Shown piece after piece: positions 1 through 44,049 of a stretch of 64,000 nucleotides of DNA (positions are counted from its first letter, which is position 1; each line of letters starts with the position of its first letter). Position numbers and translations under genes: made by a program. The DNA comes from a virus. Location: positions 5,731-69,730 of the IMG/VR virus record IMGVR_UViG_3300037245_003267; one strand, given 5' to 3'. Below the pieces are notes generated by a model, which had not been told where the DNA came from, searched no databases, and was given only the letters and a program-made list of their open reading frames with translations.

Positions 1-20
1 GCGTTTCCCCTGGCACCACC

Positions 21-57
21 ACCTTCGGCGGTCTGGCGTCAGAACTGAAGAGTATTC
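21..57 (-). promoter_or_regulatory. Early promoter copy (GAATA-NN-CTTCAG-N15-GCCGAAGGT), firing off the left window edge
   Basis: Matches the motif repeated nine times with exact 15-nt spacing. Confidence 0.75.
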
Positions 58-114
58 CAGGGTTTATCTCTGCGGGCCTCCGGCCGGCCCCGGGCGGGGG
101 CCGGCGGGGCCGGC

Positions 115-903
115 CTACTCCTGGGCCTTCTCGGCCTCGGCCATCTGGCAGTCGGGGCAGAGGCCCGTCTCGGTGTTCGCGGCCCCGGTCAGGGTCCGGT
201 CTTCGCAGGCGGGGCAGGCGTGGGTCTCGAAATCCTCGCCGGCGGCCTCGCGGAGGGCGGTCAGGAGGAGGGCGGCCGATGCGGCGCGGCGGCCGAAGGC
301 GGGGCGGTCGGTGGCGATGGGGTGCGAGACGGCCAGGTAGCTGAAGGCGGCCCGGGCCTGCCCGAGCGTGTTGATCAGGTCGTCGGCGAGGGCCTCGATC
401 GGGGGGGCGGGCGCGCGTTGATCAGAGCGGGCGGCGGCCTCGGCGTCCGCGGCCTTCTCGGCTTCGAGCCGGGCCTCGTAGGCGCCGCGGCGGGCGAGGC
501 GGGCGCAGACCGTGGCACCCTCGGCGGCCTGGCGGGCCGAGCCGGCGGCGTCGGGGTCGGCGTGGGCTATCGAGCCGGCGTCGTCCGCGGCCTCGTAGGC
601 GCGCTGCCAGGCGTCCCTCGCGCGGTCCGCGGCGCGGCGGCAGGCGGTCGCGGCGTAGCGGGCGGCGCTGACCGGGCCGTTGTAGGCGGCGTGGTTCGCG
701 GCCACCCCGTAGGTGCGTGCTTCGGAGAGGGCGGTCTGGGCGTCCTTCCACCCCTTGGTCGCGCGGTCGAGGGCGGCCCCGATGGCGATTTCGGCGTCGG
801 AATCGGGGTCGTGGTCGGCGGCGTAATCCATGAGGGCCTCGGCGGCCTCGGGGTCGTGTTCGGGGTCGGGCAGGCTGTCGTAGGTTTCGGGTTCGAAGGT
901 CAT
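115..903 (-). CDS. Ala-rich early hypothetical protein with C-terminal Zn ribbon
   Basis: ACGGAGA RBS, own promoter, CPAC...CPDC motif. Confidence 0.8.
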   Translation of the reverse strand: MTFEPETYDSLPDPEHDPEAAEALMDYAADHDPDSDAEIAIGAALDRATKGWKDAQTALSEARTYGVAANHAAYNGPVSAARYAATACRRAADRARDAWQRAYEAADDAGSIAHADPDAAGSARQAAEGATVCARLARRGAYEARLEAEKAADAEAAARSDQRAPAPPIEALADDLINTLGQARAAFSYLAVSHPIATDRPAFGRRAASAALLLTALREAAGEDFETHACPACEDRTLTGAANTETGLCPDCQMAEAEKAQE

Positions 904-944
904 CGCTGTTCTCCGTTTGGGGTTGTTGCTTCGGGCCTACCGTC

Positions 945-982
945 AGCTTCGGCAGGAAGGCCCCCGGGCTTGAGGGCCTTCC
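945..982 (-). promoter_or_regulatory. Early promoter CTCAAG-N15-GCCGAAGCT
   Basis: ttcggc 948-953, cttgag 969-974. Confidence 0.8.
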
Positions 983-989
983 GGAATTT

Positions 990-1301
990 CTACTCGCGGG
1001 CCGCGGCCTCGGCCTCCAGGCGGCTGGCCAAACCGCGGAGGCGGTAGGCGCTGTCGAGCCGGTTCCGAACCGCGTCAATCCGGTCGGCGGCGGCGTGGGC
1101 GTCTTTCTGGGCGAGGGCGAGGTCGGACCAGAGGCCGGCTCGGCGCTGCGCGTCTTCGGGGTCGGCGATGGCCTTCTCGATGGCGTCGGCCAGCATCGGC
1201 CATTTCGTTCCTGGGTGTCCCTGGGATACCAGGGCGAGGGCGGCCTCGAAGTCGGCGGAGGCGGCGGCCTGAAAGGTCAGGGAGTCGGTCTGGTCGGTCA
1301 T
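990..1301 (-). CDS. Early hypothetical protein (helical)
   Basis: ACGGAGAAAAGCC-ATG at 1301. Confidence 0.8.
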   Translation of the reverse strand: MTDQTDSLTFQAAASADFEAALALVSQGHPGTKWPMLADAIEKAIADPEDAQRRAGLWSDLALAQKDAHAAADRIDAVRNRLDSAYRLRGLASRLEAEAAARE

Positions 1302-1347
1302 GGCTTTTCTCCGTTTCGGGGTTTCGGGTGCTTTCCTTGGCACCCCT

Positions 1348-1377
1348 ACCTTCGGCACGATAGCTCTGCGGCTTGAG
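1348..1377 (-). promoter_or_regulatory. Early promoter CTCAAG-N15-GCCGAAGGT
   Basis: ttcggc 1351-1356, cttgag 1372-1377. Confidence 0.8.
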
Positions 1378-1405
1378 GGAAAGCCAGAGAATTTCCCTCT
1401 TCGCT

Positions 1406-1681
1406 TCAGGCGGCCCGCGTCACCTTCGGGCGGGGGCCGGCCGGCGGGGCCTGGCGCAGGCGTATCTCCTCGTGGAGGGCGTCGACGGCCCGCTCGATGG
1501 CCGGCTCGGCCTCGCCCAGGCGGTGGGCGGCGGCCCAGGCGCGGAGGTCTTCGAGGGCCTCCACGACGGCCTCGGCCTGGCAGGCGGCGTCGTTGCCCGG
1601 GCGGGCCTGGGTGGCGAGCAGGTAGCTGGCGGCGGAATCGAGGCGGAGGCGGGCGCGGTCGTAGTAGGGCAGGCGTGGCAT
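1406..1681 (-). CDS. Early hypothetical protein
   Basis: AAGGAG RBS, GC3-rich codons. Confidence 0.75.
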   Translation of the reverse strand: MPRLPYYDRARLRLDSAASYLLATQARPGNDAACQAEAVVEALEDLRAWAAAHRLGEAEPAIERAVDALHEEIRLRQAPPAGPRPKVTRAA

Positions 1682-1702
1682 CGGTCGGTCTCCTTGGTGG
1701 GT

Positions 1703-1740
1703 GCGCGTTGATCAGAGCGGGCGCGCGTTGATCAGAGCCG
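1703..1740. repeat. Tandem 20-bp repeat GCGCGTTGATCAGAGCGGGC (third copy at 413-432)
   Basis: Direct reading of the sequence. Confidence 0.9.
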
Positions 1741-2268
1741 GCGGCCCTTGCGGCCCCGGACCGTGACGGTCAGGGAGTCGTCGTGGCAGTTCGGCGGGGC
1801 CTTATCGTAGTGGCGGGCTTCGGTCCGCACCCGGTCGGCCTCGGCCTGGGCTTCGTCGGCCTCCTCCTTCGCGTCGTCGGCGTCCTGCTGGGCGTCGCCC
1901 CAGGCCTGGCAGCGTTTGATGTACGGGCCAAGGGAATCCCCCCGCTTCGCCTTCTCGGCGAACAGGTAGGCGGCCTCGGCCTTCTCCTGGAGGTCGTCGG
2001 CCTCCATCTCCATGTCCGTCGCGTGCTCTTCGGCCTCCGCGGCCCGGACTTCCAGAAGCTCCCAATCGAGGAGGTCTTTGCATTCGGAGCAGAGGCGGCC
2101 CCGGGCGCGGGCGATGGCTCGGCTCCGCTTGTTGTAGACGGTCACCGTGGCGTTGAAGCCGGTCGGCGTGCCGTTCTCGAGTTCGGTCCCGTGCAGGCGG
2201 CAGAGAGGGCAGGCGATTTTCGGCTTGCGTCTCTTCGGGCGTTCGATGCTGGGCGTCTCGCTGGTCAT
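1732..2268 (-). CDS. Early protein with Zn finger and coiled coil
   Basis: CPLC...CSEC; ACGGAGAAAGCC-ATG. Confidence 0.8.
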   Translation of the reverse strand: MTSETPSIERPKRRKPKIACPLCRLHGTELENGTPTGFNATVTVYNKRSRAIARARGRLCSECKDLLDWELLEVRAAEAEEHATDMEMEADDLQEKAEAAYLFAEKAKRGDSLGPYIKRCQAWGDAQQDADDAKEEADEAQAEADRVRTEARHYDKAPPNCHDDSLTVTVRGRKGRRL

Positions 2269-2305
2269 GGCTTTCTCCGTGGGTGGTCCGTTCCGGTCTA
2301 CAGGT

Positions 2306-2342
2306 AGTTTCGGCAGGGGGTCGGGGGGCCTTGAGTTTATTC
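2306..2342 (-). promoter_or_regulatory. Early promoter GAATAAA-CTCAAG-N15-GCCGAAACT
   Basis: ttcggc 2309-2314, cttgag 2330-2335. Confidence 0.8.
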
Positions 2343-2492
2343 GGGCAATTTCCTCCTGGGCTTCTGGGCGCGGACCCGGGCCATCGCTTTCCGGTAGCAG
2401 TCCACCGCATCCTGGAGGGCGCGGTAGGCGTCGAGGGCCTCGGCGTCGGCGGCCCGTCTCAAGGGGTGCGGTGGGGCGGTGGTGGTGGGCAT
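2337..2492 (-). CDS. 51-aa early protein MPTTTAPPHPLRRAADAEALDAY...KLPE (not in ORF track)
   Basis: Conserved RBS block and promoter directly upstream. Confidence 0.75.
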   Translation of the reverse strand: MPTTTAPPHPLRRAADAEALDAYRALQDAVDCYRKAMARVRAQKPRRKLPE

Positions 2493-2528
2493 GGCTTTCT
2501 CCGTGTCGGGGTCGTCCGGTCTACCTTC

Positions 2529-2565
2529 ACCTTCGGCCGGCGCGGGGCCGGCCTTGAGGCTATTC
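2529..2565 (-). promoter_or_regulatory. Early promoter GAATAGC-CTCAAG-N15-GCCGAAGGT
   Basis: cttcggc 2531-2537, cttgag 2553-2558. Confidence 0.8.
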
Positions 2566-2988
2566 CGGGAGTTCTTTCTGCACCCGTTGTGCGAAGAGGC
2601 GGGCGGCGTCGTGGGCGACCTGCTCGGCCAGGTAGGCCTCGCGCGTGGCCTCGTCGCGGTGGGTTACCGCCTTCTCCGCGAGGGCGATGGCGTCCCGGTT
2701 CTCGTTGGTGATGGGCGGCCTGCCGTCCGAGTTTCCGCAGGCCGGTCCGATGCCCGCGAGGGCCTTGGCCTGGTCGGCCGTTCGGTGGGCCAGAATCCGG
2801 TAGGCCTCGGCCTCGGCGGCGTAGCGCACGACCATCCTGGTGTGCGAGGCGAGCGTGGCGAGGGTACCGTCGCGGCGGCATTTCTCGTAGCCTTCCTCCG
2901 CTATCGTGCGGACGTTGAGGGCGTCTTCGGCCGCGGCCTGGGCGAGGGTGGCGAGGTGGTTGAGGAGGGCTTCGGTGCTGGGCTTCAT
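2560..2988 (-). CDS. Ala-rich early hypothetical protein
   Basis: Conserved RBS block, own promoter. Confidence 0.8.
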   Translation of the reverse strand: MKPSTEALLNHLATLAQAAAEDALNVRTIAEEGYEKCRRDGTLATLASHTRMVVRYAAEAEAYRILAHRTADQAKALAGIGPACGNSDGRPPITNENRDAIALAEKAVTHRDEATREAYLAEQVAHDAARLFAQRVQKELPE

Positions 2989-3021
2989 GGCTTTCTCCGT
3001 TGGGGTTTCCTTGGCACCCCT

Positions 3022-3058
3022 ACCTTCGGCAGGGGCGCCCGGGGCCTTGAGTCTATTC
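3022..3058 (-). promoter_or_regulatory. Early promoter GAATAGA-CTCAAG-N15-GCCGAAGGT
   Basis: ccttcggc 3023-3030, cttgag 3046-3051. Confidence 0.8.
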
Positions 3059-3679
3059 CGTCAATTCCTGCACCCGCCGGTAGCAGGCCATCTCCCAGGA
3101 GTAGGCGAGGTCGGTTTTCTGCCTCGCTCCCAGGAAGGCGGCGTGGGCCTCGGCCTTGGTCGTGAAGTCGGCGGCGTCGCAGGTCGCGGCCGCGGCCTCC
3201 GCTACGGTCGGCGCCGCGGCGTCGCAGGCGTTCGCGGCCCCAAGGACGGCGTCGAGGGCGGCCTGGTCGGCGGGCGGTAGCGCGGGCGGGGGGTCGTCGT
3301 AGCCTGCGCGGTCGAGGTCGTCGTGGGCGGCCTCCTCGGCCTGCTGCAACTCGCCCACCAGGTCGGAGATTACCGCGCGGAAGGCGGAGGGCGAGAAGTC
3401 TCCGGAGAGGGCGCGGACACCGAAGTCCCAGGCCCGGGCGGCGATGGGAAAGAGCCCGGGAATCGGGTGCTTGCCGACCCGGTAGGAGGGGGTCGCCCGC
3501 ATCTGGTCGACCAGGCAGGCGCGGGCGGCGTCCAGCAGCCGGAAGAGGCCTCGGTTCACCGTGAGGTCCCCATCCTGCGGCTCTCCGTCGTGGACGTTCG
3601 CGGCCTCGGAGAGCCCTTCGAGCATCTTCGTGCAGTCGGCGAGGGCGTCTCTTGCGTAGGTTTTCGTGTCGTCATCCAT
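3053..3679 (-). CDS. Early hypothetical protein (MDDDTKTY...)
   Basis: ACGGAGACGAGCC-ATG at 3679. Confidence 0.8.
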   Translation of the reverse strand: MDDDTKTYARDALADCTKMLEGLSEAANVHDGEPQDGDLTVNRGLFRLLDAARACLVDQMRATPSYRVGKHPIPGLFPIAARAWDFGVRALSGDFSPSAFRAVISDLVGELQQAEEAAHDDLDRAGYDDPPPALPPADQAALDAVLGAANACDAAAPTVAEAAAATCDAADFTTKAEAHAAFLGARQKTDLAYSWEMACYRRVQELTE

Positions 3680-3736
3680 GGCTCGTCTCCGTTCGGGGTT
3701 TTCGGCGTCGCCCGGGTCGCCCCCGGGCCTACTACC

Positions 3737-3860
3737 ACCTTCGGCTCGCTCCGTCATAACATGAAGTCAATTCAGAGATTGCAGCGAAAGTAGTCGTCGC
3801 TCTTCGGGACTTGGAATTCGGAGAATTGTCTTCAGGTCGTGGGCCGGTCGTCCGAAAGTA
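3737..3860. promoter_or_regulatory. Divergent pair of early promoters (minus: CTTCAT-N15-GCCGAAGGT, 3737-3773; plus: CTTCAG-N15-TCCGAAAGT, 3823-3859)
   Basis: Same motif on both strands in an AT-richer gap between divergent genes. Confidence 0.75.
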
Positions 3861-3917
3861 GGGGTGCGAACGAGAGCCGGCTCGGGGCCGGCGAGACCCC
3901 TGCTACGGAGAACAGCG

Positions 3918-4109
3918 ATGACCGACGAGAAGAAGCACGCCAGGAGCCTGGCCGACTTCGACCCCGCCGACTACGACGAGGGCGAGGCGCCTACCGACGA
4001 CGACCTGGCTTGGTATTGCCCGAGCTGCAAAAGCCAGGGTGTCCTACCGGACCCGGGCAACTGCGGAGTCTGCGGAAAACCGCTGGCCTGCTACGACATC
4101 CGCGAGTGA
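3918..4109 (+). CDS. Small acidic Zn-ribbon protein
   Basis: CPSC...CGVC; ACGGAGAACAGCG-ATG. Confidence 0.75.
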   Translation: MTDEKKHARSLADFDPADYDEGEAPTDDDLAWYCPSCKSQGVLPDPGNCGVCGKPLACYDIRE

Positions 4110-4154
4110 CAAGACCGGCGCCCCCCGGGGCGCCTGACCCCAACGGAGAAAGCC

Positions 4155-4517
4155 ATGACCACCAGGACGATCCTGGATTCCGCCACGGAATCCGCCACCA
4201 CCCTCGCCAGCCTCCTCGGCCGGCGCGACCAGGTCGAGCACACCAGAGCGATCGCGCTCGAGAAGCTCGCCACCCTCGAATCTCACTGCGAGACGCTCAC
4301 GCTTGATCAGGCGGGCGACGACAGCGACCTGATCTGGCAGGCGGCCTGGCAACTCGGGCGGTCCGCGAAGCACGCGCAGGCGGTCTTCAGCCGGGCCGGC
4401 GCCATCGGCCTCTACGGGCCGGGGCAGGAGCGAGAGGTGCAGAGGGCGCTGCGCGACCTGCGGGCGCGGGGCGAGAGCCTGCTGCGGATCCAACGGCACC
4501 TGATGGCGGCGCTGTAG
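4155..4517 (+). CDS. Hypothetical protein
   Basis: ACGGAGAAAGCC-ATG. Confidence 0.8.
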   Translation: MTTRTILDSATESATTLASLLGRRDQVEHTRAIALEKLATLESHCETLTLDQAGDDSDLIWQAAWQLGRSAKHAQAVFSRAGAIGLYGPGQEREVQRALRDLRARGESLLRIQRHLMAAL

Positions 4518-4571
4518 CGCCCCCTTGATCGGATTGAACTGAACCAGTTTCTTTTTTCGCAAGGAGTTCCG

Positions 4572-5021
4572 ATGAATCTTCAATCTCTTTTCCTCCTGCT
4601 GTTCGTCGCTGCGGCGATGCCATCGTGTGCAACGATCGTGAGCGGCTCAAGCGACCAGGTTGGGTTCCATTCGCCAGCCGACACGGAGGTCTACGCCGAT
4701 GCTCAACTCATCGGCACCGGGGTTTGCTCCGGCCTCGTAGGACGGTCCTGGGGCGCCGGCGATATCTATTTTCGATCCGACACCTGGCTGTGTAAGCACC
4801 AAGTGCCCCGCGTCTTCAACGGCTGGTATGTGGGGAACCTGGTCTTCGGCGGCTTGATCGGACTGGTGCTTGTCGACCTGCCCACCGGGAATCTCCGCAA
4901 GACCCCGGACGGCACGATAGTCGCCTGCACGATGAATGAGAGTTGCACCGGAGAGTTTGGCGGGACGATTCTCGAAGGACCCGTCACGATGAGCCCGAAG
5001 ACGACGGACCCGTCACAATGA
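4572..5021 (+). CDS. Lipoprotein with C-terminal GNLxFGGLIGLxxD motif
   Basis: Signal peptide ending MPSC-ATI, AAGGAG RBS, lower GC. Confidence 0.75.
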   Translation: MNLQSLFLLLFVAAAMPSCATIVSGSSDQVGFHSPADTEVYADAQLIGTGVCSGLVGRSWGAGDIYFRSDTWLCKHQVPRVFNGWYVGNLVFGGLIGLVLVDLPTGNLRKTPDGTIVACTMNESCTGEFGGTILEGPVTMSPKTTDPSQ

Positions 5022-5034
5022 GCCCGAAGACGCC
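4977..5034. repeat. Tandem 29-bp duplication at a gene junction
   Basis: GGACCCGTCAC(G/A)ATGAGCCCGAAGACG(A/C)C twice. Confidence 0.9.
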
Positions 5035-5338
5035 GGCCGAAGACGGGCCGCGCTGCCCGACCTGCGGAGACTGGATCTCCGAGACGACGGCGGGGGATCC
5101 GGTTGACCAGGACTACCGCGGGATCCACTGGATGGCCGCGGCCGAGCCCGGGACGATCGCCACCTGGACGACGAGCGTTCTCGGGATCGGGGTCGCGGTG
5201 ACGCAGCGGGCCTGCTGCCAGTACGAAGTGTGGGTCGCCGGCGAGTTCGTCACGGTCGTCGATGACTGGGAGCACGCCTTCGACGAGGCGATCCTGACCG
5301 CCGGCGAGAGGGCCGGCTGGAACGAGGGCAAGCGATGA
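5018..5338 (+). CDS. Hypothetical protein with CPTC motif
   Basis: ATGA overlap with the upstream gene. Confidence 0.65.
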   Translation: MSPKTPAEDGPRCPTCGDWISETTAGDPVDQDYRGIHWMAAAEPGTIATWTTSVLGIGVAVTQRACCQYEVWVAGEFVTVVDDWEHAFDEAILTAGERAGWNEGKR

Positions 5339-5928
5339 CGGACCCGAAGACGAAACCCATCCCTGATCAGACGGGGGGGGAAGAGGTGGTCGCGGAGGTC
5401 GCGATCACGGACGGAGACGAGCAGCCGGTAGCGACCGACTGCCCTGTGGGAGAACCGAAAGGAGGCCCCAAGGTGGCCACGAAGAAGAAGGCAGCGACGA
5501 AGAAGGTGGCGAAGAAGACCCCGGTGAAGAAGAAGCCGGCCGGCAAGGTGCGCTCCCTGACGGGGGCGGCCGCGAAGAAGGCCTCGCCGGACCCCGAGCG
5601 CTCGGCAGCCGCGAAGAAGGCAGCGGCCACGCGGGCGGAGAAGAAGGCTGGCAACCCGGCCGAGGCGAAGGCGGTCAAGGCCCGCGCGACCCGGGAGCGG
5701 CGCGAGCTACCGAAGGTCGGCACCAAGCTCTACGCACGCTACAAGGGCAAGGATTACGAGGCCGTGATCGGACAGGGAGACGATGGGAAGGCGGTCGCGC
5801 ACGCCGGCAAGACCTACCCGACCCTGAGCGCCGCCGGCAAGGCGGTCACCGGCAAGCCGACCTGCAACGGGTGGGTCTTCTGGAGCACGACGAAGCCGGG
5901 CGCGCGGAAGCCGCGGGGGAAGAAGTGA
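5335..5928 (+). CDS. Histone-H1-like Lys/Ala-rich protein with C-terminal RAMA/DUF2924-like domain (alternative start GTG 5473)
   Basis: KKAATKK repeats; GTxLxAxYKG...YxTLSAAGKAVTG..CNGWxFW. Confidence 0.75.
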   Translation: MTDPKTKPIPDQTGGEEVVAEVAITDGDEQPVATDCPVGEPKGGPKVATKKKAATKKVAKKTPVKKKPAGKVRSLTGAAAKKASPDPERSAAAKKAAATRAEKKAGNPAEAKAVKARATRERRELPKVGTKLYARYKGKDYEAVIGQGDDGKAVAHAGKTYPTLSAAGKAVTGKPTCNGWVFWSTTKPGARKPRGKK

Positions 5929-6089
5929 GCCGCCACCGAAGATTGAAGCAGCGGGAGCCCGGAAGCCCGAGCCTCTTCGCCGAGGGATACGCTTTCGGCA
6001 TCGGGTTCTGGATCGCCTCCTTGGTGGTGAACGTCGTCGCCGGCGCGGTCGGCGTCGGGATCGCCCTCGCCCTCGGGGTGAAGCTATGA
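5925..6089 (+). CDS. Small membrane protein
   Basis: Hydrophobic C-terminus, GTGA/ATGA coupling. Confidence 0.55.
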   Translation: MSRHRRLKQREPGSPSLFAEGYAFGIGFWIASLVVNVVAGAVGVGIALALGVKL

Positions 6090-6394
6090 GCCGGCCGATC
6101 CCCTTCACGCAATACCTCCGCCCTTCGGGGCGGGCGGCCCACTACTCGATCACGCGAGCGCACGAGATCGGAACGAAGGCCCACGCGCTCCTTGATCAGG
6201 GCGTCGTATTCGAGTCCGAGCTTTTGCAGACGGGCGAGGTCAGTTTGACCGCCGAGATCGATGAAAACGTTCTCGCAATCGTGGTGGTCCCGAACGGCCC
6301 GGAAGTGGGCAAGGCCGTTGATCAGCTGATCGAAGAAGCACACAAATGGATGGCCCGGCACACCGGCCGGGCGTCCCCAGATGGAGAGACCTGA
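6086..6394 (+). CDS. Hypothetical protein
   Basis: Coupled ORF, phage-like codon use. Confidence 0.75.
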   Translation: MSRPIPFTQYLRPSGRAAHYSITRAHEIGTKAHALLDQGVVFESELLQTGEVSLTAEIDENVLAIVVVPNGPEVGKAVDQLIEEAHKWMARHTGRASPDGET

Positions 6395-7032
6395 TGCGAC
6401 GAGCAGTTCACCGACCGGGCTTCCTGCTTTTCCTCGACGTCGAGACGAGCGGGCTGGACCCGGAACGCCACGAGATCATCCAGGTTGCTGCGGTGGTCGT
6501 TGATCGGGCCTTCAAGGAGCACGCGTGGCTCGAATACAAGCTCCCGTTTGACGAGGTGGCCGCCGAGCAGGAGGCGCTCGACATGAACCACTACGACCCC
6601 GAGGTCTGGGCGAAGAAGGCCGTCGACCCACTGAAGTTCATGGGCCACCTGGAAGGGATCTGCCGGACGTTTGCCTCGGTCCGGATGGTTGCGAAGCGAA
6701 CCGGGAAGCCGTTCTTCGTGGCGCAGATGGCTGGACACAACGCGGAGCGCTTCGACTTCGAGTTCCTGAAGGCGATGTACAAACGCCTTGATCGGTTCCT
6801 TCCGATCGCCTTCCGGGTGCTCGACACGGCGCAGCTGGCCACGCTCTACCTGCACGAGACGGGGGCGGTGGAGGACACGAAGCTCCAAACGCTCGCCAAG
6901 CACTTCGGGATCAACCCGGGGGACGAGCACGACGCGCTCTCGGACCTTTGCACCAACGTCGAGGTCTACCGCCGGCTGCGGGAAGAACTCAGGAAGCCGG
7001 CTGTGACGGCCTCGCCGGAGGACATTTTCTGA
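6394..7032 (+). CDS. DEDDh 3'-5' exonuclease (DnaQ-like)
   Basis: DVETSG, GHNAERFD, HDALSD motifs. Confidence 0.92.
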   Translation: MRRAVHRPGFLLFLDVETSGLDPERHEIIQVAAVVVDRAFKEHAWLEYKLPFDEVAAEQEALDMNHYDPEVWAKKAVDPLKFMGHLEGICRTFASVRMVAKRTGKPFFVAQMAGHNAERFDFEFLKAMYKRLDRFLPIAFRVLDTAQLATLYLHETGAVEDTKLQTLAKHFGINPGDEHDALSDLCTNVEVYRRLREELRKPAVTASPEDIF

Positions 7033-7406
7033 TGGAGCCACAAGAGCGCTATCTGCTTGATCTGATGGTAGGGATCGGGTCCTTCCGCACCGACGTGGAC
7101 AGGGAGCGAAACCGGGTCTCGGTCTCGGTCGATGGCGGGCCCGACGTCCACCAGGCCCTTGACCAGTTCGCCACGGATGCCCACGCGCTGAAGATGGCGC
7201 TCAGGATGGCGGCGAGGCTGTCCGCCGCGCTCCTCCTGGCGGTCGCCTTGATCGCACCGGGCTGCAGCGTGTTCAAGGGCCGGCCCACCACCCCCGAGGC
7301 CTCCCGGGCCCGGACCGCGAAGTGGGTGAACGTGGGCCGCTACGGATCCTCTGGACCACGCTTTGGGGGCCCCCGCTACCCTGCTGGAAAGCCGAGGGGG
7401 CGCTGA
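7032..7406 (+). CDS. Hypothetical protein with hydrophobic segment
   Basis: TGATG coupling; LLLAVALIAPGC. Confidence 0.55.
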   Translation: MEPQERYLLDLMVGIGSFRTDVDRERNRVSVSVDGGPDVHQALDQFATDAHALKMALRMAARLSAALLLAVALIAPGCSVFKGRPTTPEASRARTAKWVNVGRYGSSGPRFGGPRYPAGKPRGR

Positions 7407-7497
7407 TCGCGGGGGTCGGGGAGCGCCTTGGGGGTGCCGGGCGGCGGAAGCAGGGCCTGGCGGCGCGCTCCGGCCCGCGGTGGACGCGGGGGGCCTG

Positions 7498-7935
7498 TTA
7501 CTTCGAGGACGGCTTTAAGGGCCGTTTCCGGGCGACTGTGGGGGTGTCGCCCTCCGGCTCCTTCCGGTCGGCGTATTCCACGATCGACCAGCCCCCGCCG
7601 TCCTTCTTGCGCTTGGGCATGGCCAGGAACCACCGCATCCAAGGGATCCCGCTCGCCATCCCCTTGATCTTGACGATCTGACGCTCGTTGCCCTGCATCG
7701 TCCGGTAGTCGATCGCCTTCACGTCGTAGGCGCTGATCGTGTTGTCCCGGTTGATCACGATGAAGTCCGGGGTATACCAGTTCTGCATGCCGGAGACGCG
7801 GAACTTCGCGGGCTCGAACCGCCACCACTTGATGTCGCCGACGATCATCAGGCCGTCCAGCTTCTTGGCGAAGGCCTGCTCCTGCCTGTTCATGTGGTTC
7901 GCGTTCTCGATCGGGCCGGCCTTGGCGAGTTCCAT
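7498..7935 (-). CDS. PD-(D/E)XK endonuclease (DUF1064-like, possible resolvase)
   Basis: YTPDFIV...YDVKA. Confidence 0.75.
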   Translation of the reverse strand: MELAKAGPIENANHMNRQEQAFAKKLDGLMIVGDIKWWRFEPAKFRVSGMQNWYTPDFIVINRDNTISAYDVKAIDYRTMQGNERQIVKIKGMASGIPWMRWFLAMPKRKKDGGGWSIVEYADRKEPEGDTPTVARKRPLKPSSK

Positions 7936-7994
7936 GGCTCTCTCCGGTTGCAGGCGGGGCCCGGCCGCCATGACCGGGCCCCTTGATCAGATTG

Positions 7995-9482
7995 CTACGT
8001 GGGGTCCATCCAGGACCCATCGTTGTCGCCGTCCATCGTCTCGCCCATGAGCCGGTCAAGCTCCTGGATCTGCGCGTCGCTCAGGGTGGCCAGGTCGTCG
8101 CTGTCGTAGCGGCGCTTGATCACGTCCTTGGCAACTCCGGGGGTCAGCCCGAGTGATTCGAACCCCTCGGCAATCTGCGTCTCGAGTCCTTCCCTGGCCG
8201 CCTTGGCCATGGTCGGCGCCGGCGTGGCCGGCTTCCCGTCCGGCGGCGCTGCTTCCTCGGGACTGTCGTCGGTCGCGCCTCCTTGATCGGTCGTGGCGTC
8301 GACCTCCTCGTCGGGCAACGTCATCGCGGCGGCGTTGTAGCCCGTCAGCCAATAGAACCTCATCTGCGATCCGGCGGGGTGCGGGCACTCCTTGATCGCG
8401 ACCTTCTCTTCGAGGCATGCGCTGGCGCCGGCCCGGGCCATGACGGTCGCGGAGTTGACGCCATCGATCGGCTTCAGGCGCTTCACGATCGCGTCCGAGG
8501 AGAGCTTGTCGGCCGCGGTCCATCCCTCCTTCCACCACTTCACGGCGCGCTCGCCGAGCTCTCGAGGGAAGTCCTCGAGCGACGTCCCGGTGACGAACGC
8601 TCGCCACCCCTCGATGCGACGGGCGTCGGCAATGCCGCGGTGCTTCCCGCCCTCCTCGAAGCTCTCCGGCGCCGGGCGCCAGTCCGAAAGATCCTCTGCG
8701 TCAGACCCTCCCGCTCCCGCCCTCTCGTCGGCGCCCGCCTCGGCGTCGACCTCGGGTTCCGTCGTCGTCTTCGTGCCGGGTCCTCGCACCCGGCTGTCAC
8801 CCGTGCTCTTGCGGCTCGAAGCCGTGACCTCGGGCGCCGCGATGCGCTGCGGGGTCTCCTCCGGCGGGGGGCCGCTCGGCGTCGCACCAGCCGGCAGATC
8901 CGACAGGCCGTCGCGGAAGGCCTCGAGCTCGTCGGCCAGCATGCATCCGTGGGTCACGTCCGGCGCGAAGAACCGCAGGCACCTGGTGGTGGCGCGGGCG
9001 CGAAGCATGTCCCTGCGGTAGCTCTTCCAATTGAACTTGTTGTGGAGGCCCGCGATGCGCGCCTCGGTGTAGGTGAACTGGTCGGTGTGAGTCTCGACCT
9101 GCCCGTCCTGGCCGACCCGGCTCGCCTCGACAATGCAGATCTCGTCGTCCTGCTTGACGATCCGGAGCTTGATCCCGGCGCGGCGCACGAGGCTCAGCTG
9201 AAGCTCGGCGCTGATGCCTGCCTTGCCCTCCACGATGTAGATGTGCTGCAGCGCGAGCATCGGTGGGATGCCCATCTCCTTGCCCTTGAGCCAGGCTCCG
9301 AGCACCTTCTGCGGCGTGTCGAGGGCCCGCGGCGTGATGCCGCTGTCGGCGAGGAAGCCGGCCACGCGGAGCCAGTGGTCGACCGTCGACTTCTGTGGAA
9401 GGTATGCCTCCTCGAAAGTTGTCGTCTGCTGGATCGGGACAGCCTCCAGGGCCTGCCCGGCCCCGTCTTGCGGGTCGTTCAT
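7995..9482 (-). CDS. RecT/Red-beta-like single-strand annealing protein with long C-terminal extension
   Basis: GKEMGIPPMLALQHIYIVEGK; WKSYRRDMLRARATTRCLRFFAPDV. Confidence 0.85.
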   Translation of the reverse strand: MNDPQDGAGQALEAVPIQQTTTFEEAYLPQKSTVDHWLRVAGFLADSGITPRALDTPQKVLGAWLKGKEMGIPPMLALQHIYIVEGKAGISAELQLSLVRRAGIKLRIVKQDDEICIVEASRVGQDGQVETHTDQFTYTEARIAGLHNKFNWKSYRRDMLRARATTRCLRFFAPDVTHGCMLADELEAFRDGLSDLPAGATPSGPPPEETPQRIAAPEVTASSRKSTGDSRVRGPGTKTTTEPEVDAEAGADERAGAGGSDAEDLSDWRPAPESFEEGGKHRGIADARRIEGWRAFVTGTSLEDFPRELGERAVKWWKEGWTAADKLSSDAIVKRLKPIDGVNSATVMARAGASACLEEKVAIKECPHPAGSQMRFYWLTGYNAAAMTLPDEEVDATTDQGGATDDSPEEAAPPDGKPATPAPTMAKAAREGLETQIAEGFESLGLTPGVAKDVIKRRYDSDDLATLSDAQIQELDRLMGETMDGDNDGSWMDPT

Positions 9483-9491
9483 CGCTTTCTC

Positions 9492-10268
9492 CTATTGAGG
9501 GATCGGCAGGCCCCAACGGGCCTGACACTCGCGCCAGTAACCGCACTGGCGTTGGGAACACATGAAACCGCCGAAGCCTGTCGGGAGAGAAAGCCCGGGG
9601 TCCTCGGGGTCGTTGATCACCTTCTGCATTTCGTGGGCCGCGAAGTGGGTGTAACTACGCGCGCCGGCCTTGGCCGACTCGTCTACCTCGAGGGTCACCA
9701 GGTGGACCTCGGGAAACGTCTTCCGCACTCCGATGTGGAATCGGAAGGTCGAGACGCCTGGCTCGTCCATCGTGTAGATCAGAGGGTCGAGCATCGTCTG
9801 GGCCTGCCGGGCCGACCACTTCTTGGCGGTCGACTTGAGGTCGATCGAGCCGATCTCGTCCACCACGTCGATGTAGCCTGTGACCTCCACGTCCTTGCCC
9901 AGGGTGATCTTAAGCTGGCGCTCGACGCCGCCCTTGATCGGGTTCGTCTCCCGGGCCAGGCCTCGAGCGTATTCGCGCTGGAGCTCCGACAGCTGGTCGA
10001 CGCAATCACCGAACTTCTCGTCGCCCCAGAGGGTTTCATCCTTGCGGGCCCGGAGAGACTCGACGGCATGCTCGACCGTGTCCTCTACGGGGAGGTGCTC
10101 CCCGGTCTCGGATTTGTGGTGGTAGTCGACCCCGGCGCCGTCGTGCCAGGCCGAGCCGAACGTCATCGGTGCAGTCGGTGGGCGGATCAGGTGCTTGCCA
10201 TACCGAAGAGCAAACTGCATCCGGCACCGAGCGAACATATTCAGGCGGGACTTGCTCGCTCGAATCAT
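9492..10268 (-). CDS. PD-(D/E)XK RecB/Cas4-like exonuclease
   Basis: SxSRLNxFxxC, FGSAWH, GYIDVV...IDLKS, C-terminal Cys cluster. Confidence 0.88.
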   Translation of the reverse strand: MIRASKSRLNMFARCRMQFALRYGKHLIRPPTAPMTFGSAWHDGAGVDYHHKSETGEHLPVEDTVEHAVESLRARKDETLWGDEKFGDCVDQLSELQREYARGLARETNPIKGGVERQLKITLGKDVEVTGYIDVVDEIGSIDLKSTAKKWSARQAQTMLDPLIYTMDEPGVSTFRFHIGVRKTFPEVHLVTLEVDESAKAGARSYTHFAAHEMQKVINDPEDPGLSLPTGFGGFMCSQRQCGYWRECQARWGLPIPQ

Positions 10269-10347: not shown

Positions 10348-11739
10348 CTATTCCGGCGGCTTTTTGTGCCGCCTTTTCTTGACCGAAGCGAAGGTCGCGC
10401 CCTTCGCATTGGAGAGCCTCGCCGGCGTCCCGGTGAACGCCTGGAAGCGCTCCACAATCACGTCGCAGTAGAGGGCGTCGAGCTCCATCACGTAGGCGTT
10501 CCGGCCCGTCTCCTCGGCCCCGATCAGTGTCGAGCCGGAGCCGCCGAACAGGTCCAGGACGTTGTCGCCGCCAAGCGTCGAATTGGTGATCGCGCGCCGC
10601 GCGAGCTCCACCGGCTTCTCGGTCAGGTGGACCCGGTCGGACGTGGAGACCTTCTTGATCGTCCACACGTCGTTCACGCTGTTGCCCCCATACCAGCGGT
10701 GCTTCGCGCCCTTCTTCCAACCGTAGAAGCACCACTCGTGGTCGCCCATGTAGTCCTTGCGCGTCATCACCGGGTGCTGTTTGTGCCAGATGATGCACTG
10801 AGCGAAGTGAAGGTCGACGATCTTCAGGGCCGGAGGGTAGACGGCGATGTTGGCATACCCACCCCAGATGTAGAACGGGCCGCCCTCCACCAGGTGGCGC
10901 ACGGCGTTCCGGAACCACTGCTCGAGGATCACCTGGAATTCGTCGTCCGGCAGGCAGTCGTTCTCGATCGCGCGGTCGCGCGGCCGCAGCTTGCGCTTGG
11001 TCCCCTTCTTCGCGTCGGCCGTCGTCGGGTAGCTCGAGGCCCCGGCCGCCATCGCCATGTTGGAGCGGGGGGAGACGGCCACGTTGTAGGGCGGATCCAT
11101 GTTGATGAGGTGCACCGGGGCGCCGTTCAGCAGCTTGCCCAGCGCCTCCTCGGAACCGCTGTCGCCGCAGAGCAGCCGGTGCCGGCCGAGCACCCACACG
11201 TCGCCCATGCGAGTGACCGCGTTGTCGGGCATCTCGGGGATGTCGTCCTCGCCGACCTCGCCGCTCGATCCGAACATCGTCTCGAGCTCTCGGTCGGTAA
11301 AGCCCACCGTCTCGAGATCCCAATCGTCACCCTCGAGCTCCTTCAAGATCTCCTGCAGCTGGACCTTGTCCCAATCTGAGAGCTCGGCCGTTCGGTTGTC
11401 CGCGATCGCGTAGGCTTCGGCGTTCCGGTCCGTCTCCTTCACGAACACGGCCGCGATCTCCTTCCACCCGAGTTGCGTGGCCGCGATGAGGCGGGCGTTA
11501 CCGGCCACCACCCGCTTCGAGCCGTCGTCGCGCTGCTGGACGACGATCGGGACGCGCTGCCCGAACTGCTGCAGGGACGTCTTGATCGACTCGATACTGC
11601 GCGTGGGGTGCGCGCGAGCGTTGCGGGGGTCGAGGTGGAGCGACCGTATGTCCACGGCAAGGGGCCGGAGCCCCTCTATGATTTGTTCGGCTTCTTGAGC
11701 ATGCGCGCCACCACCGTTCTCAGTGCGGTCTCCGCCCAT
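10348..11739 (-). CDS. ParB-like domain fused to beta-class N6A/N4C DNA methyltransferase (start uncertain)
   Basis: DPRNARAH...VAGNARL; DPPY; HLTEKP; DLFGGSGST. Confidence 0.92.
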   Translation of the reverse strand: MGGDRTENGGGAHAQEAEQIIEGLRPLAVDIRSLHLDPRNARAHPTRSIESIKTSLQQFGQRVPIVVQQRDDGSKRVVAGNARLIAATQLGWKEIAAVFVKETDRNAEAYAIADNRTAELSDWDKVQLQEILKELEGDDWDLETVGFTDRELETMFGSSGEVGEDDIPEMPDNAVTRMGDVWVLGRHRLLCGDSGSEEALGKLLNGAPVHLINMDPPYNVAVSPRSNMAMAAGASSYPTTADAKKGTKRKLRPRDRAIENDCLPDDEFQVILEQWFRNAVRHLVEGGPFYIWGGYANIAVYPPALKIVDLHFAQCIIWHKQHPVMTRKDYMGDHEWCFYGWKKGAKHRWYGGNSVNDVWTIKKVSTSDRVHLTEKPVELARRAITNSTLGGDNVLDLFGGSGSTLIGAEETGRNAYVMELDALYCDVIVERFQAFTGTPARLSNAKGATFASVKKRRHKKPPE

Positions 11740-18447: not shown

Positions 18448-18825
18448 ATGGATCTGGTCCGGCCGGGGAAGCGCAAGTCGTGCGACCCGGGCCGGGCCGA
18501 TCGCATCCAGCAGATCAAGGACCGGATCAGGTCGGACCCGCGTTGGAAGCGTGACCCGATCACCCAGGTCCCCACCAACGCACCGAAGCGCCGGCGGGAC
18601 CTCGGCCTCCCACCCATCAAGCGCATCCATCTCACAGAAGACGAGCGCGTCGAGATTGGCCGGTGGGCCGAGGCATACAAGCTGTGCCGCAAGAAGGACC
18701 GGCTTCAATTCGCTCAGTGTCTTGGAGCACTCTACCGCGGCGCGTCGACGGTTTCGGTTCGGAAGCTACTCCGCGTGGCGAACATGCGGAGCAACGGGAG
18801 CGATGACAATGGGCGAGAGCAGTAA
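18448..18825 (+). CDS. Basic hypothetical protein
   Basis: Fills the gap in the operon. Confidence 0.55.
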   Translation: MDLVRPGKRKSCDPGRADRIQQIKDRIRSDPRWKRDPITQVPTNAPKRRRDLGLPPIKRIHLTEDERVEIGRWAEAYKLCRKKDRLQFAQCLGALYRGASTVSVRKLLRVANMRSNGSDDNGREQ

Positions 18826-19567
18826 CATTGCCTGGTGCGATCACACTTTTAACCCATGGGTTGGATGCCGCGAGATCAGCGCCGGCTGCAAGCACTGCTA
18901 CGCAAGGGGCCTGGCGGCGCGCTACGGATGGGACGTTTGGGGATTACCCAAGCGCAGAAGGGTCACGGCCGACTCGACATGGAAGGGCCCCCGCAAGTGG
19001 GATCGCGCGGCGAAGCTGGCCAGGCATTCGCCACGGGTCTTCTGCGGGTCCCTCTGCGACGTCTTCGAAGACAACGCGGAGCTCGAGGGGCCGCGGGCCC
19101 GGCTGTGGAACCTGATCTGGGAGACGCCGCACCTGGACTGGCTCCTGCTCACCAAGCGGGCCGACCGGATCCAGGCGTGCCTACCTCCGGACTGGCTCGA
19201 GATGGGCTGCGAAGGCTACCCGAACGTGTGGCTCGGGGTGTCGATCGAGGATGCGTCGGTCGCGGACCGGGCCGTTCAGCTGGCGGCCGTGCCGGCGACG
19301 GTGCGGTTCGTCTCCTACGAGCCCGCCCTGGGCCCCCTGGCCGACGAGGTGAACCTGCTGGGCATCGATTGGGTGATCTACGGGGGCGAGAGCGGCCCGC
19401 ACCACAGGCCCAACGACCGCCAATGGGCGCGCGACATGCTGGACGTTTGCCGGCGTAGGCAGGTCGCCTTCTTCTACAAGCAATCGGGCGGTGTGCGGCC
19501 TGGTGAGGGCGTGGAGCTCGACGGCGAGTTGATCCAGGAATTCCCGCGGGTTTCTCTGCTGGATTAA
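18809..19567 (+). CDS. DUF5131 (Gp37/Gp68) family protein
   Basis: IAWCDHTFNPWVGC..ISAGCKHCYA; LLTKR; WVIYGGESG; FFYKQ. Confidence 0.92.
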   Translation: MGESSNIAWCDHTFNPWVGCREISAGCKHCYARGLAARYGWDVWGLPKRRRVTADSTWKGPRKWDRAAKLARHSPRVFCGSLCDVFEDNAELEGPRARLWNLIWETPHLDWLLLTKRADRIQACLPPDWLEMGCEGYPNVWLGVSIEDASVADRAVQLAAVPATVRFVSYEPALGPLADEVNLLGIDWVIYGGESGPHHRPNDRQWARDMLDVCRRRQVAFFYKQSGGVRPGEGVELDGELIQEFPRVSLLD

Positions 19568-32668: not shown

Positions 32669-33021
32669 GTCGATGTCCCTCCCTTGCGGACCGCGCTGAG
32701 CGTCTTGGCCGCAGTTTCTTCGATTCGTTTGGTTCGCTCAGCAATCGTTTCGACGTGAGCCTCGAGCCGATCGGCACGTTGGACAAATGCCTTCAACTCT
32801 CCTGCATCGGTCGCGATCGATGCCAGGCTCTTTTTGATCTCGGGAACGGCGTCGCTCACCATGTGGGACTGCGCCGTTGTAGCCTTGAACCAGGTGATCA
32901 CGTGAGGCACCAGCTTCCAGGCCACGAGCCCGAAGAAGACGAGAATCGAGACCGGAACGCCCACATTGTTCACTACCTGGATCCATGTCTTCGGTGAGGT
33001 CTGCGCCAGCTGGATCAGCAT
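32665..33021 (-). CDS. Holin-like or inner-spanin-like membrane protein
   Basis: One TM plus coiled coil, after the tail genes; AAGGAG RBS. Confidence 0.6.
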   Translation of the reverse strand: MLIQLAQTSPKTWIQVVNNVGVPVSILVFFGLVAWKLVPHVITWFKATTAQSHMVSDAVPEIKKSLASIATDAGELKAFVQRADRLEAHVETIAERTKRIEETAAKTLSAVRKGGTST

Positions 33022-33033
33022 CGTTTGCTCCTT

Positions 33034-35892: not shown

Positions 35893-36728
35893 GGATCGAT
35901 TCCAGTCTCAAACGGGTTCTTCGGGGGCACCCATGGATACCCACCGAACTCGATCACGTTGTCAAACTTCGTCGCACAGTCGCCCGCGCCTGTCGCGCCG
36001 GATCGGTGGTCGCAGCCGGCCTGGACCTCCACGAGCACCCCGGTCACATCCTCGTGGAACGGCAGCAGGAGCGTCAGGTCGTTCCCGGCGTGGCTCAGGA
36101 TCAGCCGGTAGTCTCCCAGGGTTGGGATGGACACCATCCCGCCATTGAACCACCCGTTCGCATAGGTGCCGGACAGTCCAGGGACCGTGATGATGTTCGC
36201 GTTCACGGCCGAGACGGACCCGGTGAACTCGAAGTCCGCCACGTCGAGGTTGACCTTGCAGGTGTCCGAAGCCCCGAGGCGGTAATTGCATTGTGCTCCG
36301 CTGCGGAAGCGCGGGATCGGCCGGCCGGTCTTGGCCGTGTTCCAGTAACAGGCCAGGGCGCAATTCTGGAAGTCGTTGGTGAACTTCAGGGACTGAACGA
36401 TCCCCAGGAACTCCGTCTTGAGCTCCTCGTCCGTGTCCTCCCTTTGGTAGCGCTGGATCTCGATCGATGCGACCACGCCCGGGGGGACGCCGATATACAT
36501 CGCGGCAAACTCGTTGAGCGCCGGGACGGTCACCTCGACCGCGTCGCTGCGCTCGACCGAGACCATGATCGACGTCCGCTCGATCGAGATCGGCTCGTAG
36601 GTCTCGCCATCGATCGAGACCTCGTCCTCGGCGCTGGTGTAGCGCCACGTCTTCGAACCGATCCCGAGCGTGTAAAGCTCAACCGGCCGCGAGGCCTCTT
36701 CGCTGATTTCGTAGGGGTCGTAGGTCAT
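35889..36728 (-). CDS. Baseplate hub, BR0599/DUF2163 (gpL-like)
   Basis: PVELY...RYTS; AGCDH...CATKFDNVIEFGGYPWVP. Confidence 0.9.
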   Translation of the reverse strand: MTYDPYEISEEASRPVELYTLGIGSKTWRYTSAEDEVSIDGETYEPISIERTSIMVSVERSDAVEVTVPALNEFAAMYIGVPPGVVASIEIQRYQREDTDEELKTEFLGIVQSLKFTNDFQNCALACYWNTAKTGRPIPRFRSGAQCNYRLGASDTCKVNLDVADFEFTGSVSAVNANIITVPGLSGTYANGWFNGGMVSIPTLGDYRLILSHAGNDLTLLLPFHEDVTGVLVEVQAGCDHRSGATGAGDCATKFDNVIEFGGYPWVPPKNPFETGIDP

Positions 36729-39405: not shown

Positions 39406-39409
39406 TCGT

Positions 39410-43686: not shown

Positions 43687-43689
43687 CCT

Positions 43690-44049
43690 TTACCGTCCCT
43701 TGTTGTCGCGCCCGGCTTCCCAGCGCGCCGTCTCGTCCTTCAGATACTCGCCATCCAGCATCCGGATCATATCAGCGAAGAGCGTGCGGATGTCCGGATC
43801 GAGCCCCTCCCGGTCGGCATATTCCTGGATGAAGTTCCATGGGAGGGGGCCCGGCCCCATCCCATACTGCCGGCAGCTGCTGAGCTCGAAGAACGCGCGC
43901 ATGATGAAGCGTTCGCCACGGCTCACCTCCGGCTCGTCCAGATACCACTGGGGAGGCTCTTTACCTGCCCGCTCGTACTGCCCGCTCGTGATCGCCCACC
44001 CGTCTCGAGAGAACCTTAGCTCCCACTCGAGACGGCTTCGGAGTTTTCC
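43690..44049 (-). CDS. Tail assembly chaperone gpT part, reached by -1 frameshift at G GAA AAC (44043-44049)
   Basis: -1 frame reads LRSRLEWEL...FFELSSCRQYGMGPGPLPW. Confidence 0.8.
   Translation of the reverse strand, partial: GKLRSRLEWELRFSRDGWAITSGQYERAGKEPPQWYLDEPEVSRGERFIMRAFFELSSCRQYGMGPGPLPWNFIQEYADREGLDPDIRTLFADMIRMLDGEYLKDETARWEAGRDNKGR

Follow-up and report, generated by a model that had tools for sequence, protein, structure and literature searches.

GATC avoidance confined to one arm of an uncultured marine-sediment siphovirus genome and visible in its synonymous codons

Introduction

Why would a phage genome be nearly free of the word GATC in one block and rich in it everywhere else? 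This question is raised by a 64,000-nt window of IMG/VR record IMGVR_UViG_3300037245_003267, which comprises positions 5731-69730 of a single 69,730-bp viral contig. Words of the contig occur in marine-sediment metagenome runs, and its terminase, portal, tape-measure and tail proteins mark the genome as that of a siphovirus. An earlier note, made from the letters of the window alone, had described GATC avoidance in the first 4,168 nt and at the far end, and had proposed that first-entering DNA escapes in this way from a GATC-directed nuclease or binder. Below we ask if the avoidance is real, how far it extends and what might cause it. Positions are those of the window unless they are given as contig positions or as positions in L001, the 5,730 bp of contig directly upstream of the window (contig 1-5730).

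Results

The whole window contains 604 GATC. As the earlier note had stated, exactly five of them lie within 1-4168 (at 373, 397, 420, 1710 and 1730; the next begins at 4169), the last is at 63228 so that 63229-64000 has none, and 33.0-34.1 kb holds 11. We found that the GATC-poor tract exceeds the extent first described. It crosses the contig ends and consists of window 63229-64000, L001 and window 1-4168; in contig coordinates this is 68959-69730 plus 1-9898, a total of 10,670 bp or 15% of the genome, which we call the arm. The arm has 11 GATC (1.0/kb) and the remaining 59,060 bp, the body, has 598 (10.1/kb), a density at which about 108 would be expected in the arm. The proposed regional confinement was borne out, GATC being common throughout the body and scarce in the arm. 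Genome-wide depletion was not found: body coding sequence has 458 GATC where codon shuffles give 340 ± 12, which makes GATC the second most enriched of 136 tetramers there.

The same contrast is seen gene by gene. We used our own gene calls, which were based on GC at third codon positions (GC3) and comprise 79 open reading frames (ORFs) that cover 75% of the genome, with approximate starts. On the arm side 16 of 18 genes (17 on the minus strand and a plus-strand call at 3864-4109) lack GATC, compared with 2 of the 61 listed body genes, both short (225 and 246 nt). Arm and body are contiguous, since contigs from two samples span position 4168 with no differences. The two parts also differ in base composition: GC per kb is 70-82% in the arm and about 65% in the body, and GC3 is about 0.90 and 0.85, respectively.

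How much of the contrast is composition, and how much is selection on the word itself? Part of it is due to the unusual GATC richness of the body. Markov models predict 21.6, 24.2 and 17.4 GATC in the arm against the 11 observed (observed/expected, O/E, 0.45-0.63), which is only a modest depletion. In the body, the 598 sites are 3.1 times the 190 expected at zero order and are matched by the 578 expected at second order (O/E 1.04); the abundance of GATC in the body follows from its trinucleotides. The encoded proteins differ as well. Arm proteins have more alanine than body proteins (27.7% versus 11.5%), more arginine (10.7% versus 7.3%) and less isoleucine (1.4% versus 4.9%), GAT makes up 13 of 191 aspartate codons (7%) in the arm and 202 of 973 (21%) in the body, and CGT makes up 1 of 257 and 63 of 1071 arginine codons.

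We then compared observed and expected sites with codon-aware models, an approach that the earlier note had put forward. When each gene's own protein was combined with body codon usage, O/E was 0.11 and 0.16 in the two arm blocks (Poisson p = 4.7e-5 and 3.1e-8), whereas each of the 11 body blocks had a value within 1.17-1.68. Among body genes that had a usable expectation, the lowest stood at 0.63 of the body mean. For the 17 arm genes (2,398 codons), about 75 coding GATC would be expected at body density. This falls to 27.5 ± 4.6 for arm proteins with body codon usage and to 11.5 ± 2.8 when the arm's own codons are permuted, and 4 are observed (p ~0.003). Thus amino-acid composition and codon bias each account for about 2.5-fold, together about 6.5-fold of an approximately 19-fold contrast, and codon context adds about 3-fold. 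The earlier note had named amino-acid composition as the explanation that could undo its claim. Composition and codon bias do bring the expectation down to 11.5, but they do not reach the 4 sites observed, nor do they explain the following behavior of isoleucine codons.

In the arm, isoleucine after a codon ending in G is encoded by ATC 2, ATT 7 and ATA 4 times, whereas after other codons it is encoded by ATC 19, ATT 0 and ATA 2 times (Fisher p = 1.8e-5). ATC is therefore replaced in 11 of 13 cases where GATC would form and in 2 of 21 otherwise. Since ATC is the preferred and G+C-rich isoleucine codon, this swap to ATT or ATA is contrary to the codon preference of the arm itself. In the body the tendency is reversed, with ATC used in 372 of 405 cases after G and in 277 of 318 after other bases, and G precedes ATC in 57% of cases there compared with 48% for other codons starting with A. 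The rare codons pointed out earlier are true minus-strand codons, namely TCG ATA at 570, ACG ATA at 2904, CGG ATT at 1079 and 2796, and GTA ATC at 3370. Aspartate behaves similarly: GAT is used 1 time in 61 before C and 12 times in 133 before other bases in the arm (p = 0.066), the reverse of the body, where GAT is enriched before C (p = 0.0012). Five control pairs, AAC/AAT, TTC/TTT, CAC/CAT, TGC/TGT and AGC/AGT, show no effect of a preceding G in arm or body. As a positive control, tyrosine in the body, where GTAC is avoided, is encoded by TAC 11 and TAT 25 times after G and by TAC 236 and TAT 28 times otherwise (p = 9e-14). In total, 4 of 113 synonymous opportunities to form GATC are realized in the arm and 456 of 991 in the body. 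We conclude that GATC is very probably selected against in the arm and that this selection acts on the choice among synonymous codons. H-NS-type avoidance of AT-rich DNA was considered as a cause and rejected, as the arm takes the AT-richer isoleucine codons exactly where GATC would form.

GATC is not the only word that is scarce. Under the arm's own codon usage O/E is 0.16 for GTAC, 0.33 for AGCT, 0.35 for GATC, 0.50 for ACGT, 0.65 for CATG, 0.74 for GCGC and 0.81 for CCGG, while TCGA and GGCC are not low. The proposal of avoidance directed at GATC therefore holds in that GATC is counter-selected in the arm, but it does not hold as strictly GATC-only, because AGCT, ACGT, CATG, GCGC and CCGG are low too. 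As a class, palindromes lie below other tetramers in the arm (median z -2.14 versus -0.54, one-sided p = 0.03). They are not lower in the body (p = 0.57), where only GTAC, CTAG, TTAA and TATA are low. Class-wide depletion of palindromes is a hallmark of type II DNA enzymes, and the low palindrome class in the arm points to DNA rather than RNA targets.

Two of these words are avoided by the whole genome. CTAG does not occur once in all 69,730 bp, against a zero-order expectation of about 212. GTAC occurs 17 times genome-wide, where more than 100 are expected, and is removed synonymously by use of TAT for TAC after G; we count 3 against 18.9 expected in the arm and 11 against 109 in the body. 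The whole genome thus avoids GTAC and CTAG, and the arm avoids several words more, among which GATC is the most conspicuous because the body is rich in it. The most enriched arm tetramer is CTAC/GTAG (91 against 32-59 expected), and CTAC is enriched in the body too. Two longer words are also rare in the contig: ACCGGT is absent (17-24 expected) and TGCGCA occurs twice (12-24 expected).

We next considered the GATC sites that survive in the arm. The earlier note had seen that four of the five survivors in the window share one sequence, and we could confirm this, the sequence being GTTGATCAG. Across the entire arm 7 of 11 GATC lie within (G/C)GTTGATCA(G/A)A. The 12-mer T(C/T)TGATCAACGC is present in six copies, all of them on the arm's coding strand and none outside the arm. 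Copies of the motif with a surviving GATC, TCTGATCAACGC, are found at 415-426, 1705-1716 and 1725-1736, with three more in L001, and 6 of 6 are on the minus strand. Downstream of one gene there are three copies at intervals of 36-38 nt, a tandem pair 20 nt apart lies between two genes with the first copy including a stop codon, and one copy is within a gene. Non-coding arm DNA has 7 GATC compared with 6.3 expected at zero order, and 5 of the 7 are copies of the motif. The flanks of the surviving sites differ too, TGATCA having a density of 0.66 per kb in the arm and 0.39 per kb in the body, and CGATCG occurring 101 times in the body and 2 times in the arm. Since the survivors are concentrated in one repeated motif of fixed orientation, they look functionally constrained, and the motif presumably has a function.

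The arm encodes at least 18 small genes on the same strand, 17 on the minus strand between contig positions 297 and 9487 plus a 38-amino-acid (aa), alanine-rich gene at 63283-63399 (-), which has the ribosome-binding context and upstream element of arm genes. Upstream regions of 13 arm genes align to the consensus GAAnnCCCTCAAGGCC, then after about 12 nt CTGCCGAAGCTG, GGTAGGCC and AACCCCnAACGGAGAAAGCC, followed by ATG. The copy at 2989-3075 (-), taken from this alignment, reads GGAATAnCCTCAAG..GCCGAAGCTG..GGTAGGCC..AACGGAGAAAGCC-ATG, and further copies in the window are at 904-995, 2269-2356, 2493-2580 and 63400-63500 (two-block pattern at 63472-63494). A search with the two-block pattern gave 27 minus-strand matches, overlaps counted, all but 3 of them inside the arm, and 0 plus-strand matches. 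The arm, to whose coding strand the element is restricted, forms one regulon. The copy at 63472-63494 indicates that the arm runs on without a break through the contig junction. The context AACGGAGAAAGCC-ATG is fixed in the arm and common to the first body gene. When the element pattern was searched in IMG/VR we obtained 5 single-copy, unclustered matches, which we take as chance. A scan of window 1-5000 for sigma-70 promoters gave 0 sites, and the same 5 kb has 5 terminator-like sites compared with 4.4 expected.

The part of the arm in the window, 1-4168, has its 5 GATC in 4,168 bp with a GC content of 69-73% against about 65%. Its first, promoter-proximal gene is at 3053-3757 (-, 234 aa), and among 5.8 billion proteins we found only this protein itself and one 140-aa partial homolog. 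It is followed on the same strand by genes at 2560-2988 (142 aa), 2337-2492 (51 aa) and 1732-2268. The last of these encodes 178 aa with N-terminal zinc-ribbon-like CxxC pairs, for which only sub-threshold alanine-zipper matches were found, and its TGA stop lies within a copy of the GATC motif. The next gene, 1406-1681 (-, 91 aa), has two tandem copies of the GATC motif upstream in place of the usual element. The gene at 990-1358 (-) probably has its true start at an internal ATG near 1300. Finally, the gene at 115-903 (-) encodes a 262-aa protein with 28% alanine and a C-terminal CxxC...CxxC; its GC3 is 0.94 and it contains 3 of the 4 coding GATC of the arm.

Searches of Pfam (10 proteins, including 3 neighbors), PHROGs (10), NCBIfam (2) and the Atlas (1) found no relative of an arm protein. 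The 262-aa protein had no match by tblastn, and its structural look-alikes in the Atlas gave no feature match, with a best TM of 0.38. An all-against-all blastp of 18 arm proteins with composition correction yielded no pair at E<=1e-3 and thus no detectable paralogy.

Both boundaries of the arm can be placed closely. At the inner end, a control region of lower GC (3758-3917) lies between the divergent arm genes and a small plus-strand gene, 3918-4109, which encodes a 63-aa zinc-ribbon-like protein, is GATC-free and has a partial copy of the arm element upstream. The first GATC-rich gene follows at 4155-4517 (+); it has 5 GATC (13.8/kb), the first in codon 5, and makes this boundary sharp. At the other end, 63229-64000 has 0 GATC and contains the one small arm gene, one copy of the element and a GC-rich, repeat-rich non-coding stretch. 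Adjoining it on the body side, the non-coding stretch 62860-63230 contains 12 GATC in about 370 bp, an A-rich patch and one arm of a 23-nt inverted repeat. This GATC cluster could be an origin, a pac site or a control region; similar densities are present elsewhere in the window.

The body encodes a DNA methyltransferase. The predicted product of 10348-11739 (-), in the GATC-rich body, is a fusion of a ParB N-terminal domain (PF02195, 3.2e-7) and an N6/N4 DNA methyltransferase of the beta class (PF01555, 3.8e-28), so that a phage methyltransferase, as invoked in the earlier note, is present and is encoded outside the GATC-poor block. It is about equally distant from CcrM, M.MboIIA, DpnA and M.RsrI, the nearest solved enzymes differ in specificity, and its NCBIfam matches are all far below cut-off.

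Discussion

Our data demonstrate a depletion that acts at the DNA level, is confined to the arm and is realized through synonymous codons, in an arm that belongs to the same genome as the body. Such selection against a short palindrome within one region is expected if recognition at the DNA level acts on the arm and the other ~600 sites are either protected or of no consequence. The explanation we favor, tentatively and at somewhat less than even confidence, is avoidance of restriction sites in a leading or early region by way of first-entering DNA. A host nuclease that recognizes GATC would reach the arm before phage protection of the other ~600 sites is in place; either an inhibitor encoded in the arm or the methyltransferase of the phage could provide that protection. 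The arm would then be both expressed early and exposed early, and fast expression would suit its raised GC content and more pronounced codon bias. In phages of the lambda and SPP1 kind, the DNA that lies upstream of the terminase genes is the last to be packaged and the first to leave. By gene order the arm lies upstream of the terminase genes relative to their direction of transcription, a position compatible with last-packaged, first-ejected DNA if the same rule applies.

There are precedents for this explanation. T5 and BF23 are reported to be subject to type I and type II restriction only when sites are in the first-step-transfer (FST) region (PMC10644984). In Murciavirus, type I restriction is attributed only to motifs in the first-injected region, and the authors of that study make the case that restriction operates at a sub-genomic level and that anti-defense genes reside in leading regions (PMC12455610). 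The arm resembles the FST block of these Tequintavirus phages: the T5 block is about 10 kb, terminal and composed of small, mostly unknown pre-early genes, sites outside it are tolerated, and there is a repeat-rich non-coding stretch at its border (PMC10644984, PMC12455610). In contrast, the T5 block lies in a duplicated long terminal repeat and enters by a proven two-step injection, whereas here contig depth is equal for arm and body, the head module is Mu-like and the word avoided has four letters, with some 100 occurrences to be expected if it were not avoided. We found no sequence similarity between the arm and the T5/BF23 FST region. As in Murciavirus, a member of the Autographiviridae, faced with Mme2I, where a first-injected, highly variable region rich in anti-defense genes decides sensitivity (PMC12455610), one region of the genome would be decisive. 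Murciavirus, however, is a podovirus with staged T7-like entry and has one or two sites of a rare bipartite type I motif; ours is a siphovirus in which a short palindrome is purged statistically through codon choice.

Genome-wide site avoidance also purges short palindromes synonymously, as this genome does everywhere for GTAC and CTAG, but here the GATC purge covers 15% of the genome and the rest is enriched. T7 is GATC-poor. For phiX174, absence of GATC is reported (PMC5014478), and genome-wide restriction-site avoidance is treated by Rusinov et al. 2018 (PMC6286503). The leading regions of conjugative plasmids are a further parallel, first-entering plasmid DNA being GC-rich, codon-adapted and rich in anti-defense genes; palindrome depletion was reported to be inconsistent there (PMC13478746), while it is strong and specific to codon context here.

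Several observations weigh against this explanation. The head module consists of Terminase_6C, Portal_Mu and Phage_Mu_F (MuF) proteins, and modules of this type are usually headful. The Mu-like module thus hints at headful packaging, which would blur a fixed entering end, and early-region avoidance is said not to be relevant for headful phages with random ends (PMC12455610). Contig depth in run X1 was 12.8 for the arm and 12.1 for the body, which speaks against a duplicated repeat as in T5. The arm is transcribed towards its terminase-side end, unlike T7 with its inward-pointing early promoters. The arm proteins that were tested match no known anti-restriction family in Pfam, PHROG, NCBIfam or Atlas. 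Relatives of the large terminase subunit (TerL), at 59% identity or less, are too distant to test conservation of the arm. With a methyltransferase specific for GATC, the DNA in the virion would be protected from the outset, and a classical type II enzyme would give no reason to avoid the word. The codon evidence has weak points as well. The raw contrast in GATC is largely compositional (isoleucine, alanine and GAT usage), the isoleucine test comprises 34 codons only and uses our own GC3-based gene calls, and a sixth control pair, GAC/GAT, was not null, with an effect of a preceding G in the arm (p = 0.004). ACGT and AGCT have arm/body ratios of realized opportunities similar to that of GATC, because codons ending in A or T are rarer in the arm. 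These ratios are thus non-specific, and the claim of specificity rests on the isoleucine test and the own-codon permutation.

What else could produce such a pattern? If composition and codon adaptation alone were responsible, with proteins rich in alanine, arginine and aspartate and poor in isoleucine and a stronger GC3, words containing A and T would be rare and no nuclease need be involved. The stepwise fall of the expectation from about 75 to 11.5 and the similar ratios of ACGT and AGCT favor this, as do plasmid leading regions, which are reported to be GC-rich and codon-adapted with no consistent palindrome depletion (PMC13478746). As a sole cause it is nevertheless largely refuted, and we rate it as fairly unlikely, because the arm's own codon usage still predicts almost three times the sites observed, ATC is replaced after G against the compositional trend, and the five other codon pairs ending in C or T show no context effect. 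Slightly easier to entertain, though still unlikely, is a role for the phage's own methylation: the ParB-methyltransferase would mark GATC in the body, methylated GATC would be harmful in the arm through a DpnI-like or type IV nuclease or through interference with transcription, and the few clustered sites would be kept as methylation-sensing switches. The enzyme is encoded in the body, where GATC is enriched over codon shuffles, and the survivors are clustered in twos and threes in one motif upstream of genes, which is reminiscent of the Dam-controlled regulatory regions of mom and pap. Against it stand the lack of a close relative of defined specificity among the four enzymes compared, the NCBIfam scores, and the second-order Markov model, which abolishes the enrichment in the body. 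In addition, the body would remain open to cutting by a methyl-dependent nuclease unless the DNA enters in stages, in which case this idea collapses into leading-region avoidance.

Recent acquisition of the arm from another lineage, phage or host, in which GATC is avoided throughout the genome would account for its distinct GC (70-82% versus 65%), its ORFan content and its cassette-like layout with repeated elements, to which joints between element copies in other samples add weakly, their sides being 20-29 nt. We consider this improbable, as the arm shares the body's GTAC avoidance and its lack of CTAG, the first body gene has the ribosome-binding context of the arm, CTAC is enriched in both, and the boundaries match the regulon rather than an integrase or a repeat-flanked insertion; the common avoidance of GTAC and CTAG makes a recent import unlikely. 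Least probable, in our view, is avoidance at the RNA level, in which GAUC would be kept out of arm transcripts as the target of an endoribonuclease of host or phage. The depletion matches a transcription unit, all arm DNA is probably transcribed, and a palindrome cannot tell the strands apart; but other palindromes are low in the arm too, with the class below other words, and we know of no GAUC-specific RNase. A further idea, which we hold as unlikely but a shade better than recent acquisition, is that the arm is a cut-proof anti-defense array whose benefit is independent of entry order. Each gene would have its own promoter in DNA free of nuclease sites, and a genome cut at the ~600 body sites would still express all inhibitors, so that the cell would be disarmed for co-infecting or later sibling phages. 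Such cooperative immunosuppression is known for anti-CRISPRs and would here extend to restriction enzymes. If true, this would account for avoidance in one region even where packaging is headful and the ends are permuted.

Avoidance of sites in a leading region, the explanation we favor, is a known phenomenon; this siphovirus lineage, uncultured and from marine sediment, would add a new case, in which the signature at the codon level is unusually clean. Experiments have demonstrated region-limited avoidance for only a few phages in culture (T5-like phages and Murciavirus). Here the same signature is read from sequence alone, and the codon-level evidence separates selection from composition. 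If the explanation is right, 'deserts' of the GATC type could reveal where the leading or early regions of metagenomic phages lie and which words the nucleases of their hosts recognize, and the ~18 ORFans of the arm would be candidates for new anti-restriction or host-takeover proteins. Motif counts over whole genomes would then make avoidance look weaker than it is wherever exposure is limited to one part of the genome.

Additional features of the genome

A T5-type long terminal repeat was rejected on the equal depth of arm and body, and the only repeats that we found the two contig ends to have in common are short elements. About 44 nt of poly-G stand at the start of the contig and are probably an artifact of sequencing or assembly. 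Around the contig junction (63400-64000 and L001 1-300), about 900 bp of very GC-rich non-coding DNA contain GCCTACC/GGTAGGC repeats and runs of G or C. The 23-nt inverted repeat (91%) has its halves at 63184-63206 and L001 3075-3097, with GGAAAATCCTTC near both, and it brackets the GC-richest, distal part of the arm, about 3.9 kb of 78-82% GC with five genes that encode proteins of 37-45% alanine. Diverged pieces of the arm are present in three other samples. Of the four runs compared with the contig, X3 and X4, which have a small share, were given no weight as evidence, nor were uncovered stretches. Some contigs from other samples join element copies to each other and drop 1.6-2.1 kb of arm genes (927-3016 in X1 and X2; 941-2531 in X2 and X3). 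This is a weak hint at loss or gain of cassettes through recombination between elements, as the sides of the joints are only 20-29 nt.

The structural genes of the body are on the minus strand: TerL at 59012-60574 (phrog_38, 2e-71; Terminase_6C), the Mu-type portal at 57558-59174 (phrog_113; Portal_Mu), the tape-measure protein at 40714-43686 and tail proteins at 33034-38443. We found no recognizable small terminase subunit. The nearest TerL is that of Shewanella phage S0112 (48% identity), followed by those of Rhizobium, Erythrobacter and Roseobacter phages, and a tail protein is about 31% identical to its counterparts in Xylella, Xanthomonas, Stenotrophomonas and Sphingomonas siphoviruses. 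TerL relatives were found at 22 loci in IMG/VR (up to 56% identity) and at 22 loci in a metagenome collection (up to 59%). Among those with enough flank none had a GATC-poor, high-GC block near the terminase, and among the longer loci none lacked CTAG. Nucleotide searches with 1-8000, which covers the in-window arm and adjacent body, and with 33000-45000 found no match in 50,697 phage records. A search for the portal in bacterial genomes gave 78 pattern matches with 0 confirmed, Rfam gave nothing over all 69,730 bases, and a tRNA search of L001 gave nothing.

The body also encodes a RecT-like protein, a PD-(D/E)XK nuclease and an SMC/Rad50-like ATPase. A DUF5131 (Gp37/Gp68) protein at 18551-19567 (+; Pfam 7.7e-66) weakly resembles 'radical SAM mobile pair protein A'; it may contribute to a function in DNA modification. 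RAMA is the restriction enzyme adenine methylase associated domain; a 197-aa protein at 5335-5928 (+), just on the GATC-rich side of the boundary, has sub-threshold or borderline matches to DUF2924 and to RAMA. Between the terminase region and the arm, a 555-aa ORF at 61194-62861 (+) has no family match and runs antisense to the structural genes, converging on the arm.

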